NCBI GenBank assembly: GCA_019429385.1
Contig: JAHYIS010000007.1
Coordinates: forward strand, 5,909-69,908
Direction: 5' to 3'
Origin: ANME-2 cluster archaeon
GTDB lineage: Archaea > Halobacteriota > Methanosarcinia > Methanosarcinales > Methanocomedenaceae
DNA: 64,000 bases
A program made the position numbers and the translations under genes. Below the pieces are notes generated by a model. It was not told the origin of the DNA, did no database searches, and saw only the letters and a program-made list of their open reading frames with translations. This document shows, one piece after another, positions 1-6,119 of this stretch (the first letter of the stretch is position 1; the number at the start of each line of letters is the position of its first letter).

Positions 1-1
1 A

Positions 2-244
2 GTTTCCAACAACGTCCCTATAAAAAATAAACAATCACAAAATGATAGAGGTTTTTGTATTCGCTGTGGAAATGACTTAAAACTTAATCATGAAAAACCT
101 CTTTGTTACAATTGTTTCAACATTTGGAAAGAATATAGTAATCCAAATTATAAAGAGAAATTTTGCCATGCTTGTGGAACTAAATATAACAGTACTGTTG
201 AAAAACCTATTTGCATTGACTGCTATAAGAAATTGGCAAAATAA
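2..244 (+). CDS. C-terminal fragment of a protein with tandem CxxC zinc-ribbon motifs; the ORF enters from upstream of the window
   Basis: My translation of frame 2 runs open from position 2 to TAA at 242-244: ...GFCIRCGNDLKLNHEKPLCYNCFNIWKEYSNPNYKEKFCHACGTKYNSTVEKPICIDCYKKLAK. It has four CxxC pairs. It is absent from the ORF track because no start codon lies in the window. Confidence 0.5.
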   Translation, partial: VSNNVPIKNKQSQNDRGFCIRCGNDLKLNHEKPLCYNCFNIWKEYSNPNYKEKFCHACGTKYNSTVEKPICIDCYKKLAK

Positions 245-295
245 TAATTGGAACATATTCAATTTCTAAATCATGTTAACATAGCAGTATGATCT

Positions 296-505
296 TATCC
301 TCATTCCTCCCTTCTTCCCCTTTCCTGCTGCCCCTTTTGGTTCACTTATGCAGGGTGCCCCTCCCGCTCTGCTCAGCCTGCCCTTGTGGTGTGAGGGCTG
401 GCAGGCGCTTTTCGCTTATTCCTGCGGGCTTTGGGTGCGAAGTGGGGAGGGATGCCTGGGTGGAGGGTTGCAAGGTGGGGGGCTCGAAACTAAATTTCGA
501 ATTTA
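296..505 (+). repeat. GC-rich structured repeat, copy A (modules m1-m2-m3)
   Basis: Aligns by eye to copies at 2148, 3176 and 3917. Shared blocks include CACTT..AGGGTGCCCC, GCCTGCCCTTGTGGTG..GGCTGGCAGGCGCTTTTCG..TTCCTGCGGGCTTTGGGTGCGAAGTGGGGA and the G-rich tail GGGGGGCTCGA. Confidence 0.85.
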
Positions 506-629
506 CACTTCCAACCTTCGTTCTATTCACTACACTGATTTAAGTCTAAAACCAAGTATTTCGTATGATTTGGCACAGATCATCATTAAATGACAAATGG
601 TTTTCCTGAAAATAAAGGAGTTTGAAGTG

Positions 630-1310
630 TCAAAATTGTTTACAATAAAAATCAGAATCATCAAATTCCATATCATTAGCGATATTAATAAAACCCATTT
701 TGCATTTCTTAGCAAAATCTCTATCATCAAGGAAGAATTCAATTGGTTTTATATATTCAAGATTTGTCATCAATTCATGAAATATCCGTCCATCATTTGT
801 GTCCTTAAAATGAATATCAGCAAGTGATCTTTTCACAATATTGAGCCTTTTATGATTTAATAACAATATTTCAAAGCCAGGATGGATCTCTTCGATTTTG
901 AAAATGATCGAATTTGATAAATTTAATGACAGTTCTGATAAAAAATCAGGTAGATCGTCTATTTCATTGTCTTTAAAAAAAATTGAGATTTCATGATATA
1001 CCAGATTTAGAAAATTAGATAGCCCTGGTTTTGCAGCTTTTAAGTTTTTGAACTGCTCTATTAAAAAAGCCTGGGAATCCAATGTACTGATACTGGAGCT
1101 CTGATAAATATCAGGTAGAAATCTGATAATATCAACCATAACTTCATTTATTTTATTTCTCAGTACGTTATGTGATTCCATAATTGCTGAATGACATAAA
1201 TACAATTGTTCATTCCGTTTATCATCCATCAAAGCTATAGATGTTTCATGAAGTCGATCATTTGTATTAATTATTCCTAAAATGATATTAGTATCAAAAG
1301 AAAAATTCAT
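630..1310 (-). CDS. Hypothetical protein with PIN-like N- and C-terminal motifs split by a long helical insertion
   Basis: 226-aa ORF. The N-terminus MNFSFDTNIILGI resembles PIN strand 1 with its acidic residue. Later FKDTNDGRIFHEL and FFLDDRDFAKK resemble the distal PIN acidic motifs. Its start abuts the stop of the upstream ORF (1312). Confidence 0.45.
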   Translation of the reverse strand: MNFSFDTNIILGIINTNDRLHETSIALMDDKRNEQLYLCHSAIMESHNVLRNKINEVMVDIIRFLPDIYQSSSISTLDSQAFLIEQFKNLKAAKPGLSNFLNLVYHEISIFFKDNEIDDLPDFLSELSLNLSNSIIFKIEEIHPGFEILLLNHKRLNIVKRSLADIHFKDTNDGRIFHELMTNLEYIKPIEFFLDDRDFAKKCKMGFINIANDMEFDDSDFYCKQF

Positions 1311-1311
1311 T

Positions 1312-2031
1312 TTAAGCCTCTAAGACTTCAAAAACAGCATTATAATTTCTTGGAATTAATTCGTCATTAAAATTAGATAAGCTCAAATTAGTTACATCAT
1401 CCTGAAGATCTTGAAAAGAAATCTTTCCCCTGTGAAAAGCCTCGATTCTAAGCAATGAAACATTAATCATTATCCAGATATCAACATCATCTACCTTTTT
1501 TAAGGATTTCTTTATTAATTCATGAATGTTAAAAAAGTATTGATATAGGACTAATAACTGATTGGTATTTTCAGCCTTGTCCCATATTTTAAATTTAATC
1601 TCTTCCCTAATGGATGAAATTCTTCCATTTAGTTTTCTTAAAGTTATTCTAAAAAGTTCCGTTTGCTGTCGAGGTTCTAAGTTTGTTGAAAACGATTTTA
1701 GTTTCTTGAAACTTTCATTGAAATCCTGGAGAATAGCAATTTGATCTTCTAGTTTATTTTCGATAGTTCCTAAGTCGTCTTCATAAATATTAATTGAAAT
1801 AATATCTGTTAAAGCTTCCAATAATTTTTCTCTTGTTTCAAAGTCCAATTTCAAAATTTGGTCTAATTCCTTTTGAATCTGATAAAGTCTATGCATTGAT
1901 CTTAGATAATCAACTGTGCCAATTACTGGTCGCATAACTAATGTAATACTCTCAAATATATCGGATGAAAAAACATCCAGAATATAGTTAATAGATTTAA
2001 ATTGGCTGTTAGACGAATAATGAGCGTTCAT
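1312..2031 (-). CDS. Hypothetical, predicted all-helical/coiled-coil protein; first gene of a two-gene cassette
   Basis: 239-aa ORF in AT-rich DNA with heptad-like K/E/L-rich sequence. It is tightly coupled to the 630..1310 ORF. I recognise no family. Confidence 0.5.
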   Translation of the reverse strand: MNAHYSSNSQFKSINYILDVFSSDIFESITLVMRPVIGTVDYLRSMHRLYQIQKELDQILKLDFETREKLLEALTDIISINIYEDDLGTIENKLEDQIAILQDFNESFKKLKSFSTNLEPRQQTELFRITLRKLNGRISSIREEIKFKIWDKAENTNQLLVLYQYFFNIHELIKKSLKKVDDVDIWIMINVSLLRIEAFHRGKISFQDLQDDVTNLSLSNFNDELIPRNYNAVFEVLEA

Positions 2032-2147
2032 GATAATATAATCCTATTAATGACTTAAATCCATTTATAATCTAGCTTATTTAAGTTTATTGTAAAGCTT
2101 CAAATGATGCCTGAAATGAAAAATCATCATTAACATTGTTGATGTCT

Positions 2148-2343
2148 TCAGCCCCCATCCCTTCTTCAACTCTCATGCCGCCCCTTAGTCTTCACTTTAC
2201 AGGGTGCCCGTCCTGATCATCTCCGCTCGCCCTTGTGGTGAGGGGGGCTGGCAGGGGCTCGAATCGCATTAAAAAGCAGGCGTTTGGTGGGCTATTCAAC
2301 TGACCCTGCCACCGCTGCCCTTCAAGGCGGCATGGTGGCAGCC
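2148..2343 (+). repeat. GC-rich structured repeat, copy B (m1, truncated m2, m4 hairpin)
   Basis: Shares CTTCACTTTACAGGGTGCCC and the m4 block GCATTAAAAAGCAGGC.TTTGGTGGGCTATTCAACTGACCCTGCCACCGCTGCCCTTCA.GGCGGCATGGTGGCAGCC with copy D. Relative to D it has an internal deletion of ~75 nt. Confidence 0.85.
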
Positions 2344-2443
2344 AACATTATTGATACACAAATATCTGCATAATTGGAGTTGGAACATCTTTATAACATT
2401 TAGTGTTAATAGAATAATCAAAGTTAATCAAAATCTAACCAAG

Positions 2444-2665
2444 GTGATACTATTGGAAAGCATCGAAGCAATCAAAAAGCATTTGGATTACATGTCCCAT
2501 GAAATTGTTGAAATGAAGAAGCTAATAGTTGGCCTGGAATCAGATAAACAAAAATCCAATAGAGCATGGGATGATTTAATGAGTGCATCAGACCAAATAT
2601 CGGAAAAATGGATTGAAGTCTCAGCTGCAGATGAAATAAGATCACAACGAGAAAAGACGTGGTGA
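2444..2665 (+). CDS. Putative VapB-type antitoxin (start uncertain; GTG at 2444 proposed)
   Basis: Small ORF ending 5 nt before the PIN toxin gene. The track ORF (TTG 2351) reaches back to within a few nt of repeat copy B (which ends at 2343), so it is probably over-extended. Assignment rests on position only. Confidence 0.5.
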   Translation: MILLESIEAIKKHLDYMSHEIVEMKKLIVGLESDKQKSNRAWDDLMSASDQISEKWIEVSAADEIRSQREKTW

Positions 2666-2669
2666 ATCT

Positions 2670-3086
2670 GTGAATATTTGTCTGGATAGTTCTGTTATTG
2701 TAGCAGCATTAAGAAAGCAAGAAGTCCATCATGAAGCTGCTAGAAATTTATTGGAAAGTATTAAAGATGGAGAACATATTGCTATAGAACCTTACATTGT
2801 TTTAATTGAAATTGTTGCTGCCATAAAACGAAGAACAGGTTCAACAGAACTTGCCAACAGAGTGAAAAATGATTTTTTGGCTATAGACACCATAAATTTT
2901 ATGGACCTTGAATCAACCAGGGCAAGTCATGCATCTGAAATTGCAGTGAATCTTGGGGTAAGGGGAATGGATGCTATTGTTATACAAATAGCAAAAGAGT
3001 TTAATGTCCCCCTCATTACATTGGACAAAGAAATGATCGAAAAGGCTAAATCCTTCGTCGATATCAGTGCTGTAGAAGATTTGTGA
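2670..3086 (+). CDS. vapC: PIN-domain ribonuclease toxin VapC
   Basis: 138 aa. N-terminal ICLDSSVIVAAL is the PIN strand 1 Asp motif. It also has a mid-protein acidic residue and the C-terminal LITLDKEM motif. Confidence 0.8.
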   Translation: MNICLDSSVIVAALRKQEVHHEAARNLLESIKDGEHIAIEPYIVLIEIVAAIKRRTGSTELANRVKNDFLAIDTINFMDLESTRASHASEIAVNLGVRGMDAIVIQIAKEFNVPLITLDKEMIEKAKSFVDISAVEDL

Positions 3087-3175
3087 ATTAGCTACGATTT
3101 GATTAAAACTATTGGGGAGACACTAAATTTTAGCCCTCTCTGTGCATCTGTCATATCAATGATTATTATTTAACA

Positions 3176-3330
3176 TATCCATCCCCATCCTTTTTCAGTT
3201 CTCCTTCCGCCCCCTCGGTTTCACTTTTTAGGGTGCCCCCTCCCGCTCTGCTCAACCTGCCCTTGTGGTGATGGGTGCTGGCAGGCGCTTTTCGATTCTT
3301 CCTGCGGGCTTTTGGGTGCGAAGTCGGACT
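3176..3330 (+). repeat. GC-rich structured repeat, copy C (m1-m2 only)
   Basis: Near-identical to copy A across CCCTCCCGCTCTGCTCA.CCTGCCCTTGTGGTG...GCTGGCAGGCGCTTTTCG.TT.TTCCTGCGGGCTTT.GGGTGCGAAGT. Confidence 0.85.
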
Positions 3331-3414
3331 GATACTTAGGTGAGTGTTTGTAGGTATGGATTCTGTTGAAAACAATTATTAACAATTAAAGCATCCATTT
3401 AAATGAGGTAAAAT

Positions 3415-3600
3415 ATGGGTAATGTTAAGGACGAAGTAATAAAAATGATACATACAATGCCAAATGGTGTTTCAGTAGATGATATAATGGCTGAGTTATA
3501 TTTTCGTCAAAAAGTGGATGCTGGTTTATATGCTCTTGATAGAGATCAAGGTATTGAACACGAGATAGTAAAAGAAAAACTTACTAAATGGCTAGAATAA
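3415..3600 (+). CDS. Antitoxin of a RelE/ParE-type module (addiction-module component)
   Basis: 61 aa. It overlaps the toxin gene start by 13 nt. The pattern ...VDDIMAELYFRQKVDAGL...IEHEIVKEKLTKWL is typical of small antitoxins paired with ParE/RelE toxins. Confidence 0.7.
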   Translation: MGNVKDEVIKMIHTMPNGVSVDDIMAELYFRQKVDAGLYALDRDQGIEHEIVKEKLTKWLE

Positions 3601-3875
3601 TCTGGTCTCCTAATGCATCAGATGATTTGGAGTCTATCTGTGAATTTATTGCGATAGATTCTGAGTACTATGCTCGATCGTTCGCAAAAGGAATTATTAA
3701 GGCTATAGAAAGACTCATTGTATTTCCTGAATCAGGTAGAATCGTCCCGGAATATAATTTGAATAATATTCGTGAAATAATTTATCAGAATTATCGAATT
3801 GTCTATAGGATCAAGTCAGATATTATTGAAATTGTAACTATAGTCCATGGTGCAAGATTGTTAGACCACTTTTAA
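3588..3875 (+). CDS. RelE/ParE family type II toxin
   Basis: 95 aa. IWSPNASDDLESICEFIA...FPESGRIVPEY...IREIIYQNYRIVYRI..DIIEIVTIVHGARLL matches the RelE/ParE fold signature. Confidence 0.8.
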   Translation: MARIIWSPNASDDLESICEFIAIDSEYYARSFAKGIIKAIERLIVFPESGRIVPEYNLNNIREIIYQNYRIVYRIKSDIIEIVTIVHGARLLDHF

Positions 3876-3916
3876 GTTATCCTTTTTTGACTCGTTGAGC
3901 CAAATTTGTATATTTA

Positions 3917-4163
3917 CACACTCCTTCCGCCCCTTCATCTTCACTTTACAGGGTGCCCCACTCGTTATGTTCCTCCTGTCCCTGTGATAAGGGTGCTAGT
4001 AGGCGCTTTTCGATTCTTCCTGCGGACTTTGGGTGCGAAGTGGGGATGGATGCTTTTGTGGGGGGTTGGAGGGGGGGCTCGATTTGCATTAAAAAGCAGG
4101 CATTTGGTGGGCTATTCAACTGACCCTGCCACCGCTGCCCTTCAGGGCGGCATGGTGGCAGCC
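3917..4163 (+). repeat. GC-rich structured repeat, copy D (the most complete copy, m1-m2-m3-m4)
   Basis: Contains every block seen in copies A-C in the same order and ends in the 14-bp-class hairpin CTGCCACCGCTGCC/GGCGGCATGGTGGCAG followed by CCA. Confidence 0.85.
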
Positions 4164-4255
4164 AGCCGTGTTGATTCATATTGCCTGGGGTTTGGAGAGG
4201 CAAGAATATGAAACCGGATGCAGACTATGGATGTGATTCCTGTCGCACCTTGTTG

Positions 4256-4380: not shown

Positions 4381-6075
4381 TTACTTGTGCGTAAAATAAG
4401 CCACAACCCCACCATCAGCACTATCTATCCTCACATACCCGTACCGTTCGAACTGCACCACCCTGTCAACCTCAGTGGCAATACCAGCCTCGCCAATCCC
4501 TTCAACCTCACCATCAGGCGTCAGCACCTTCACAGGTATCCCGTCCACGGGAGCCCAGTGGATAATGCGGCCGCCCCCCTTCTTTACGGTCTCGATATCA
4601 TGTCCTGCAAATTCGGCCGTGCCCTCGCCAGTGATCCTGATATTATACAGCTCTTTCAACCTGAACAGGTCACCCGGTTTTGCATTCCCGATATCCTGGT
4701 TGCATACCAGCACGCTGTGCTTCACCGTAATTTCCCTGGTACCCCTGGCCACAGTCGGGTGCAGCGAAGGTTTCACAACAGTGGGTTGTGTACCCGAGAG
4801 CTCAAGTTTCACCGGCTCCCACACAAAGAAATACCGGTTTGCGTCAGCATCGATCAACTTGCGGTTCTCGGCATACAGGTTATCCAGGCTCAGGCTCACA
4901 TCGGTCTCGCCCACACCCATATCAACGAAGAACTTGCGCAGAGCTTCCGGCCTGAACCCACGGCGGCGAATGGCCCGAAGCGTCGGCAGCCGAGGGTCAT
5001 CCCAGCCAGAATACTCGCCTGCCTCAATAGCCGCACGCAGTCCGCTGGTACTGAACTTGCCGAACTCGTGCATCTTCACACGGCCCCAGTGGGACGTGCG
5101 GGGATAGGTCCAGCCCAGGTAATCATAAACATACTTCTGCCGCAGCTCGCTGTCCATCAGGTCCTTGCCCCTGATGATATGGGTCATACCCAGCACGTGG
5201 TCTTCGATGGCCCCTTCAAAATCCAGCAAAGGCCAGACCACATACCTGTCACCCACTTCCGGGCGGGGATGCGGTGTCCTGATCACCCGGAATGCACCCC
5301 AGTCACGCAACGCGGGGTCCTTGTGCTTGATATCTGTCTTTATGCGCAACACCCCCGCCCGTTCCTCGTATTCACCAGCCAGCATCCGTTTCCATTCACG
5401 CAGGTGGTGTTCAGGCGCCGTGTCCCTGTGCGGGCATGCCTGTTTTGCATCCTTCAGCTGCTTGAACTCATCCTGGGTACAGGTACACACATAAGCATGC
5501 CCGGCCTTGATGAGCGTTTCTGCATATTCGTAATAGATAGGAAGCCTGTCCGATGCCATGACCACCTCATCCGGGTTGGCACCCAGCCATCTGCAATCTT
5601 CCAGGTACCAGTCATAGGCTTCCAGCATAGGCCGCTTGGTCACGGGGTCGGTGTCATCGAACCTGATAATGAACTTGCCCCCATATTTCTTCACGTACTC
5701 GCTATTGACCACGATACCACGGGTACTCCCAAGGGTGGGCGGACCGTTGGGGTTGGGCGCGAACCTCATAACTACGCCTCCTTTTGCATCCGGGAGTTCC
5801 TTTAACCCCTTATCCGGCTCCTTGCGCAGCGAAAGTTCAACTATTAACTCGGGAGCCATTGTTTCCAGTTCAGTCTGCCACTGTTCCAACGATCCGCTGG
5901 CAATATCTTTTAGTGCTTCGCCCAACAGGGGGCCTATTTCCTTAGCCCTCTGGCGCAGTTCGGGATGTTCCCCCATCAATTTGCCCATAACCGCACCCTG
6001 CTGCGGAGCTTTGCCGTATTTTACGGCATTCTGCAAAGCATATTTCTTAACGAGAATTTCAATATCTGCTTCCAT
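4381..6075 (-). CDS. gltX: Glutamyl-tRNA synthetase (archaeal type)
   Basis: Class I aaRS core: VMRFAPNPNGPPTLGSTRG (HIGH-region equivalent), FIIRFDDTDP, and KFSTSGLRAAIEAGEYSGWDDPRLPTLRAIRRRG. ATG at 6075 is preferred over the track start at 6102. Confidence 0.9.
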   Translation of the reverse strand: MEADIEILVKKYALQNAVKYGKAPQQGAVMGKLMGEHPELRQRAKEIGPLLGEALKDIASGSLEQWQTELETMAPELIVELSLRKEPDKGLKELPDAKGGVVMRFAPNPNGPPTLGSTRGIVVNSEYVKKYGGKFIIRFDDTDPVTKRPMLEAYDWYLEDCRWLGANPDEVVMASDRLPIYYEYAETLIKAGHAYVCTCTQDEFKQLKDAKQACPHRDTAPEHHLREWKRMLAGEYEERAGVLRIKTDIKHKDPALRDWGAFRVIRTPHPRPEVGDRYVVWPLLDFEGAIEDHVLGMTHIIRGKDLMDSELRQKYVYDYLGWTYPRTSHWGRVKMHEFGKFSTSGLRAAIEAGEYSGWDDPRLPTLRAIRRRGFRPEALRKFFVDMGVGETDVSLSLDNLYAENRKLIDADANRYFFVWEPVKLELSGTQPTVVKPSLHPTVARGTREITVKHSVLVCNQDIGNAKPGDLFRLKELYNIRITGEGTAEFAGHDIETVKKGGGRIIHWAPVDGIPVKVLTPDGEVEGIGEAGIATEVDRVVQFERYGYVRIDSADGGVVAYFTHK

Positions 6076-6119
6076 ATACCGTTCAAGATGTACTGGTAGC
6101 ACATAATTATTTGCAAAAA

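Follow-up and report, generated by a model that had tools for sequence, protein, structure and literature searches.

Here we describe two adjacent genes, A and B, at positions 630–2031 of a 64,000-nucleotide stretch of DNA from an ANME-2 cluster archaeon (contig JAHYIS010000007.1; the whole stretch is referred to as the window). Gene A encodes an acidic, all-helical protein that is not assigned to a family, and gene B encodes what sequence comparisons and a structural model indicate to be a divergent VapC-like PIN domain enlarged by a helical subdomain. With moderate confidence, we read the pair as a VapBC-like addiction or defense module in which the toxin would be B, an RNase with an expanded PIN domain, and A, unusually large for such a role, would neutralize it. 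The first-pass annotation of this DNA had proposed a new toxin–antitoxin (TA) variant or a small defense module with a nuclease effector. This proposal is supported by the PIN homology of B and the conserved linkage of the two genes, from which we infer the function.

Both genes are on the minus strand and start with ATG. Gene A (1312–2031) encodes 239 amino acids and gene B (630–1310) encodes 226 amino acids, so that the two open reading frames (ORFs) called in the first-pass annotation, 1 nt apart, are confirmed at these positions. The A–B junction (1311–1320, minus strand), which together with the start codon of B reads GAGGCT-TAA-A-ATG, contains a Shine–Dalgarno-like GAGG (1317–1320), the TAA stop codon of A (1312–1314), a 1-nt spacer (1311), and the ATG of B (1308–1310). 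This layout is consistent with translational coupling, and a spacing of 1–2 nt is also found in most homologous loci. The GC content of the A–B segment is 28.5% compared with ~47% for the remainder of the window. At the composition of the segment, the probability that a frame stays open by chance is ~4e-9 for 226 codons and ~1e-9 for 239 codons. Because both proteins have strong homologues, with E-values down to 1e-123 and 1e-135 for the two proteins, A and B are real genes. The exact window proteins have been recorded from a metagenome-assembled genome (MAG) of an ANME-2 cluster archaeon, A as MBW6517645.1 (K0A89_03985), on a contig of 77,410 nt. In the protein collection, A has an NCBI accession and the exact B protein (P0193) is listed from JGI/IMG only; B may be unannotated in the NCBI record of the source MAG. 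Throughout, P-numbers denote proteins of the analysis and L-numbers denote loci carrying A, B, or the repeat that bounds them.

An exhaustive profile search for the B family returned 83 clusters among 1.84 billion representative proteins. Full-length members are mostly ~205–265 amino acids long, which makes the enlarged size a trait of the family. In an alignment of 51 relatives, reaching down to ~18% identity, D6 is the sole invariant residue and only E45, F100, D173, and D196 are otherwise conserved in at least 90% of the members; D6, D173, and D196 are also invariant in a family alignment from which the helical insert was deleted. The four acidic residues, with their putative catalytic codons on the minus strand (D6 at 1293–1295, E45 at 1176–1178, D173 at 792–794, and D196 at 723–725), occupy PIN positions, namely an Asp after β1, a Glu that opens the helix following β2, an Asp at the N-terminus of a helix, and an Asp after β4, in agreement with the secondary structure predicted by AlphaFold2 (AF2). 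The stretches on which the first-pass annotation based its assignment, a PIN-like start (FSFDTNIILGI, containing D6) and two PIN-like distal motifs (DTNDGRIFHEL with D173 and FLDDRDFAKK with D196), are all present in B, and the conservation of these four residues supports that assignment, as do the profile comparisons that follow.

The sole recurrent Pfam match of the B family is PF01850 (gathering score 23.6 bits), which was matched below threshold by 10 of the 22 members in the close set and by 18 of the 51 in the broad set, with a best E-value of 1.8e-5. A hidden Markov model (HMM) of the B family matches the VapC encoded elsewhere in the window at 8.6e-6 and canonical VapCs of related cassette arrays at 1e-8 to 1e-6. 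Four of these VapCs were scanned, the one in the window and three from other arrays, and all are Pfam PINs at ~1e-11 to 1e-17. Comparison of the B family by hhalign with eight PINs from the arrays, four of them confirmed as PF01850 by Pfam scan, gave a probability of 96.5% and an E-value of 9.7e-10, driven by the N-terminal ~55 residues. Residues 1–53 of B align with residues 1–55 of the window VapC, which places D6 with D6 and E45 with E47. A second hhalign segment of low probability places FFLDDRDF with LITLDKEM and D196 with D119 of VapC. A PDB sequence search with the B-family profile returned only noise, and a PHROGs search with the two proteins of the pair gave nothing significant, the one match, to PHROG 13609 (E 8e-4), being to a family of no known function.

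The AF2 model of B (pLDDT 76, pTM 0.65) has five strands in PIN order. From the N-terminus it contains a strand at residues 2–4, a helix at 22–30, a strand at 36–39, a helix at 40–63 that bears E45, and five extra helices up to residue 142. It continues with a strand at 147–149, helices at 153–162 and 171–182 (the latter bearing D173), a strand at 190–194 followed by D196, a helix at 197–214, and a final strand at 221–225. The predicted topology is β1-α-β2-α(E)-[insert]-β3-α-α(D)-β4(D)-α-β5. Together, the alignments and the model indicate that B, though divergent, is genuinely a VapC-like PIN domain.

The helical expansion of B (909–1121, minus strand; approximately residues 64–134) was placed from the AF2 secondary structure between the Glu-bearing helix and strand 3, and holds a nearly invariant KPxLxNF motif that includes F100 (codon 1011–1013). 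It is located at the position of the S2-H3 insert of VapC-like PINs, a short helical element that carries the catalytic Glu and forms the cleft for the C-terminal helix of VapB (PMC5499597). The first-pass annotation had estimated ~100 extra helical residues; the expansion is real, but its size is ~70–90 residues, judging from the 226 amino acids of B and the 138 amino acids of the neighboring VapC. In silico removal of residues 64–134 leaves a sequence of 155 amino acids, and 6 of 10 B-family members treated in this way have PIN-clan Pfam matches. Only one of the 10, P0155 with 27.2 bits, scores above the Pfam cut-off, and insert-deleted window B matches only PIN_3 at an E-value of 0.033. The top PDB sequence match of insert-deleted B is the VapC AF_1683 (1w8i; cluster PIN.COG2402), with an E-value of 0.021.

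Helical additions are known in two other kinds of PIN protein. FEN-like PINs have extra helices at the equivalent topological position, after strand 2 and by the active site (PMC5499597). Unlike these, B keeps the VapC-type catalytic Glu and has no H3TH motif, and it gave no sequence or fold match to them. HARP/PIN_5 protein-only RNase P is a ~23 kDa PIN with an inserted helical "spike", and B is likewise an archaeal, single-domain PIN of ~200 amino acids that is enlarged by an internal helical insertion. However, HARPs are stand-alone housekeeping-type genes and not cassette pairs with an obligatory partner. We rejected kinship of B with HARP/PIN_5 because no member of the family matches PIN_5 (PF08745) and no HARP appears among the PDB sequence or fold matches.

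Protein A belongs to a family of 75 homologue clusters that share the motifs RPxxGxxDYL, TREK, LTDI, LNGRIxSIR, QLLVLDQ, and IEAFHRGK. The invariant polar residues are D41, E95, S140, R142, Q164, E197, H200, R201, and K203, the last four of which are in EAFHRGK. The protein is acidic (pI ~5, net charge –10) and is without a basic N-terminal region. The first-pass annotation had described A as coiled-coil or helical. The helical part of this description stands, but we rejected the coiled coil because AF2 predicts a compact globule of 13 helices (pLDDT 85.7, pTM 0.83). A C-terminal helix at approximately residues 230–238, in which F234 and E235 are nearly invariant, is conserved and follows a low-confidence linker; the last ~17 residues have a pLDDT of ~50 despite their conservation. 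In the model, this helix is the sole part of A that resembles a binding tail. No relative of A was found in Pfam, NCBIfam, or PADLOC (PADLOC at E≤1), a Pfam scan of 33 family members returned coiled-coil noise, and a PDB sequence search with the A-family profile returned noise only. Foldseek searches against PDB and BFVD with the model of A gave generic helical bundles with TM scores of 0.44 or less. A possible link to HEPN proteins, raised by weak matches of 4 of the 33 members to LinB-like_C (KNTase_C/HEPN clan) at an E-value of ~0.009, was dropped since no Rx4-6H motif is present.

Conservation of the gene neighborhood had been proposed in the first-pass annotation as a check on the pair. 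In the survey, ~25 loci have B directly downstream of A, in the same direction and after a gap of 1–9 nt, and the pair is kept as a unit at every locus with an intact A except for one fusion (L009). These loci are found in Methanoperedens (L001–3, L016–18, L020), Methanolobus (L004/5, L008, L021, L024, L027), Methanosalsum (L006/7), ANME-2 (L011, L081), ANME-3 (L013), and other Methanosarcinales (L010, L012, L014, L015, L019, L023, L025). The two proteins diverge at equal rates, with A/B identities of 93/89%, 73/68%, 64/65%, and 43/44%. A profile search with the B-family alignment in a further database added only two remote members. Two remote B homologues (~18–24% identity; L029 and L030) are also preceded by genes for proteins of 235–245 amino acids. 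The partner in L030 is a homologue of A (hhalign 98.3%), and the partner in L029 is only marginally similar to A. At L029, a gene for a tyrosine recombinase (94–1284; Phage_integrase, 1.4e-18) is directly upstream of those for the 235-amino acid partner and the 218-amino acid B-like protein, which suggests that this copy is on an integrative element.

We also examined how the pair decays. Gene B is disrupted next to an intact A in ANME-3 (L013, by a TAA at codon 43, two codons before E45), in a Methanolobus MAG (L021, by a frameshift), in the complete genome of Methanolobus sp. WCC5 (by a frameshift), and in Methanosalsum natronophilum AME2 (by a frameshift at codon 202). Thus, B is broken with A intact in at least four lineages; the reverse, a broken A with an intact B, was seen once (L023). 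P0198 and P0199 are truncated B proteins whose locus tags lie next to the tags of full-length A proteins. A Methanoperedens MAG (L026, 3054–3161 and 5001–5450) has damage in both genes, in that A is split by an insertion of ~1.8 kb and B is truncated after residue 113. L009 (374–1309; P0107, P0109) lacks B, and its A, which is almost complete, is joined in frame to a UPF0150/HicB-like antitoxin domain (Pfam 1.1e-23). An overlapping ORF of 76 amino acids (1287–1517), which appears HicA-like by eye and has no Pfam match, is found there in place of the PIN gene. This fusion groups A with the antitoxin of an RNase TA pair, as in HicAB; unlike HicAB, the cassette in the window has neither HicA nor HicB. 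Because B is lost while A is kept, and because A is fused to an antitoxin domain, these patterns fit the idea that B would be harmful and A protective, within a small sample.

The DNA around the pair contains candidate expression signals. A block of ~55 nt upstream of A (2041–2096, minus strand), a putative archaeal promoter, is conserved among ANME-2, ANME-3, and Methanosarcinaceae loci even though their flanks differ. Inside it is a TATA-like sequence, TTATAAAT, at 2063–2070, which is bracketed by a perfect 8-nt inverted repeat, ACTTAAAT (2079–2086) and ATTTAAGT (2053–2060), with an 18-nt spacer. Comparable inverted repeats with a spacing of 18–20 nt surround TATA-like boxes in L013 and L001. 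A role of the repeat as an operator is tempered by the shortness of its arms, the AT-rich composition of the DNA, and the lack of an evident DNA-binding domain in A. On the other side of the cassette, a T-rich run, CTTTATTTTC (608–617, minus strand), occurs 13 nt after the TGA stop codon of B (630–632) and is a possible oligo-T terminator. Read from the sequence, these elements would fit a cassette that has its own promoter, perhaps an operator, and a terminator. A scan for sigma-70 promoters and intrinsic terminators was uninformative for an archaeon. The first-pass annotation had argued that the pair is inverted relative to the other cassettes and must have its own promoter. The strand of A–B is indeed opposite to that of the neighboring VapBC-like (2351–3086) and ParDE-like (3415–3875) cassettes, and the conserved upstream block agrees with a promoter of its own. 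However, the inversion is not intrinsic to the pair, which has the other orientation in ANME-3 and Methanosarcinaceae MAGs. Because the upstream block is kept in L013–15, where the pair has this other orientation relative to the repeats, the block is part of the cassette itself and did not arise from the inversion in the window.

An enrichment of type II TA systems has been reported for ANME genomes (bioRxiv 10.1101/2024.05.23.595608), and the pair shares several features with VapBC. The order of the genes is that of VapBC, with the candidate antitoxin directly upstream of the PIN gene and abutting it (by 1 nt in the window and by 1–9 nt in the ~25 loci). The four acidic residues of B are at canonical positions, its N-terminal "DTN..I....D..H" segment aligns with archaeal VapCs, the pair is found among TA cassettes, and a putative promoter with an inverted repeat precedes the first gene. 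By contrast, the ~70-residue helical subdomain of the 226-amino acid B replaces a short H2 insert, the genes are 1 nt apart rather than overlapping, and window B is below the Pfam threshold for PIN. The partner also differs from a VapB, since A is large (239 amino acids), globular, acidic, and without an AbrB, RHH, Phd, or HTH domain.

Under the VapBC-like reading, B would be a Mg2+-dependent PIN endoribonuclease with D6, E45, D173, and D196 as its catalytic tetrad. The short insert after the Glu that forms the antitoxin-docking cleft of canonical VapCs would have grown in B into the ~70-residue subdomain. Protein A would be the cognate neutralizer and would be made first from a shared transcript, with B translated by coupling through the 1-nt spacer and the internal GAGG. 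Formation of an A–B complex would keep B inactive, and the conserved acidic C-terminal helix of A, on its flexible linker, may be placed into the enlarged cleft of B. The inverted repeat upstream of A might allow the module to regulate its own expression. Once free, B would cleave cellular RNA and cause growth arrest, which would either stabilize the cassette array or abort an infection.

Several observations weigh against this reading. Window B has no Pfam match at E≤1 and no NCBIfam or PADLOC match, and its statistically solid homology to PINs is limited to the N-terminal ~55 residues, so that the assignment of the C-terminal half depends on motifs and predicted secondary structure. The first 20 residues of the model, D6 included, have a pLDDT below 50. 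A Foldseek search with the AF2 model, which the first-pass annotation had recommended, did return a PIN protein, PAE0151 (2fe1; cluster PIN.COG4113), as the best PDB match of B, though a weak one (E 0.78, probability 0.69, TM 0.54). Protein A does not have the properties of a VapB antitoxin, being a globular, acidic protein of 239 amino acids without a Pfam or NCBIfam domain. It is also no less conserved than B, has numerous invariant polar residues, and lacks a recognizable DNA-binding domain. No copy of A or B was found in plasmid, phage, or viral-contig collections, and PADLOC-DB v2 has no family for either protein at E≤1. Finally, assembly errors may account for some of the MAG frameshifts, and A, too, is found in truncated form. 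Because of the properties of A, we do not file the pair as a classical VapBC member; judged from the sequences, it is probably a VapBC variant that falls outside the classical group on the side of the antitoxin.

The same properties of A are the starting point for the main alternative, a two-component abortive-infection system, which we consider possible but doubtful. Here, A would be a stable sensor or regulator, perhaps with a ligand-binding or catalytic site of its own, that keeps B latent until attack by a virus or mobile element, and the helical expansion of B would be a regulatory latch or a module for substrate selection. A large, globular partner that is as conserved as the nuclease and rich in invariant polar residues is unusual for a labile antitoxin. 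Moreover, the architecture is kept down to ~20% identity, and the arrays adjoin restriction-modification, Dnd, and AAA/DUF4143 genes. Against this, the pair matches no PADLOC model and there is no virus-derived evidence. The EAFHRGK motif is not kept in the remote partners, where it reads EAARRGK in L030 and LFFVQGK in L029, which argues against a catalytic role for that motif. On present data, this defense system and the TA module are inseparable.

It is also conceivable, but very improbable, that the roles are reversed, with A as the harmful protein and B as a PIN RNase acting against it, for instance through degradation of the mRNA of A in a type V-like manner. Protein A has the more enzyme-like pattern of invariant polar residues, and its retention when B decays might also reflect a function of A that does not depend on B. 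However, a toxic A would be expected to kill or burden its host once B is inactivated, yet A persists without B in at least four lineages, two cultured strains among them, and for this reason we think reversed roles unlikely. The fusion of A to an antitoxin-type HicB-like domain in L009 and the gene order, which is antitoxin first (PMC5499597), also speak against it. Equally improbable is a heteromeric housekeeping nuclease for RNA processing, with B as a HARP or Nob1/Fcf1-type PIN and A as its specificity subunit: A and B do co-evolve tightly and PINs with helical insertions do perform RNA maturation (PMC5499597), but this is unlikely because the small family is patchily distributed, occurs only in accessory, AT-rich, repeat-bounded cassettes of variable position and orientation, and includes pseudogenes in cultured isolates, and neither PIN_5 in Pfam nor HARP in PDB searches was matched.

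The VapBC-like module that we favor is part of a larger arrangement. Positions 1–4200 of the window are an array of AT-rich cassettes between GC-rich repeats that are all in one orientation. Two repeats bound A–B, one on the 3′ side (291–544, plus strand) and one on the promoter side (2142–2358, plus strand), both identified by repeat searches, a repeat HMM run with nhmmer, and alignment. Further copies are at 3168–3401 and 3907–4180 in the same orientation. The other cassettes are on the plus strand. The VapBC-like cassette (2351–3086) contains an ORF of 104 amino acids (2351–2665) and a VapC with a Pfam PIN match at 6.8e-17, and the ParDE-like cassette (3415–3875) contains an ORF of 61 amino acids (3415–3600) and a ParE (E 9e-20). 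The presumed antitoxins at 2351–2665 and 3415–3600 have no significant Pfam match, so these neighbors are recognizable as TA cassettes through their toxins alone. The first-pass annotation had taken A–B to be the only cassette of the array that is not a recognizable TA pair. This is not the case, because the truncated leftmost cassette (1–244, plus strand) encodes a C-terminus with two CxxC...CxxC zinc ribbons (weak Pfam DZR/DZR_2 matches, ~9e-5). The array stops where an ORF (4381–6102, minus strand) has its 3′ end; this ORF appears by eye to encode an archaeal-type glutamyl-tRNA synthetase.

The repeats have ~55% GC and are 180–280 nt long, and they also flank A–B in MAGs of ANME-2, ANME-3, and Methanosarcinaceae (L011–L015). 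A scan of metagenomes with a 21-nt core of the repeat found 108 loci, of which 105 carry repeats (L033–L140) and 65 have 2–10 copies; within each of the 105, the copies all lie on one strand. The VapBC and ParDE cassettes of the window recur at 85–91% identity on other contigs without A–B, which shows that the cassettes are shuffled. The position and orientation of A–B relative to the repeats vary between genomes, and elsewhere the pair is found among VapBC, DUF433, restriction-modification, and AAA cassettes. Type I restriction-modification and Dnd genes border the arrays, and AAA/DUF4143 genes are also adjacent. The repeats do not match tRNAs or Rfam RNAs and were rejected as such. They were also rejected as coding sequence, since the frames differ between copies, and as structured RNA or attC-like hairpins, given a single-strand fold z-score of –1.1, an alifold energy of –6 kcal/mol, and almost no covariation. 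Searches of plasmid, phage, and viral-contig collections found no copy of the repeat. Two of the four repeats in the window contain an extra module of 105 nt (2254–2358 and 4074–4178, 91% identical) that is absent from the other two and that forms, by eye, a strong hairpin, CTGCCACCGCTGCC-CTTCAA-GGCGGCATGGTGGCAG.

In layout, these arrays resemble integrons, with TA-rich accessory cassettes that lie between co-oriented repeats and are shuffled between genomes, and with group II intron reverse transcriptases in some arrays. An example of the latter is a reverse transcriptase/maturase in or beside the array of L096 (2239–3756, minus strand; RVT_1 2e-41, GIIM 4e-24), and three more array loci, L125 among them, have similar ORFs. 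Group II introns are known to associate with bacterial integron attC sites. An attC site is 55–141 nt long and is an imperfect palindrome that folds as a hairpin. By contrast, the repeats described here are 180–280 nt long, GC-rich, often partial or in tandem, and without a significant hairpin or covariation, so they do not behave as attC sites. In addition, the same cassette occurs in both orientations and the cassettes carry their own promoters, and no integrase was seen at the array edges. An integron array has an IntI tyrosine recombinase and an attI site at one end; no recurrent recombinase was found beside the array edges in 25 loci with long flanks. The array in the window runs off the left end of the window, and the contig extends a further 13 kb. 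The main text of a paper on archaeal integrons does not mention Methanosarcinales or ANME (PMC9668308).

A more far-reaching interpretation, which we think rather unlikely, is that A–B is a new two-component system in which a protein of orphan fold, A, as sensor or regulator, gates an expanded PIN RNase through the helical subdomain of the latter. The pair would then move as a self-expressed cassette within an undescribed archaeal cassette-array system built on strictly co-oriented GC-rich repeats of ~200 nt, without attC-like structure or a visible integrase, in defense islands of ANME-2, ANME-3, and Methanosarcinaceae. To our knowledge, PIN/VapC proteins are the largest toxin superfamily in archaea, and nearly all studied examples are ~130 amino acids long and have small DNA-binding antitoxins. 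If B is simply a decorated VapC, the pair would be a modest extension of known TA diversity. The B family enlarges the part of the PIN fold that forms the antitoxin cleft, and its nuclease comes with a partner that is large, conserved, and similar to no known fold; studying the pair could therefore reveal a new way of regulating or targeting a PIN nuclease. The hosts include uncultured methane-oxidizing archaea whose mobile-element and defense biology is little explored, and the arrays in their genomes may be a platform for gene shuffling that is distinct from classical integrons.

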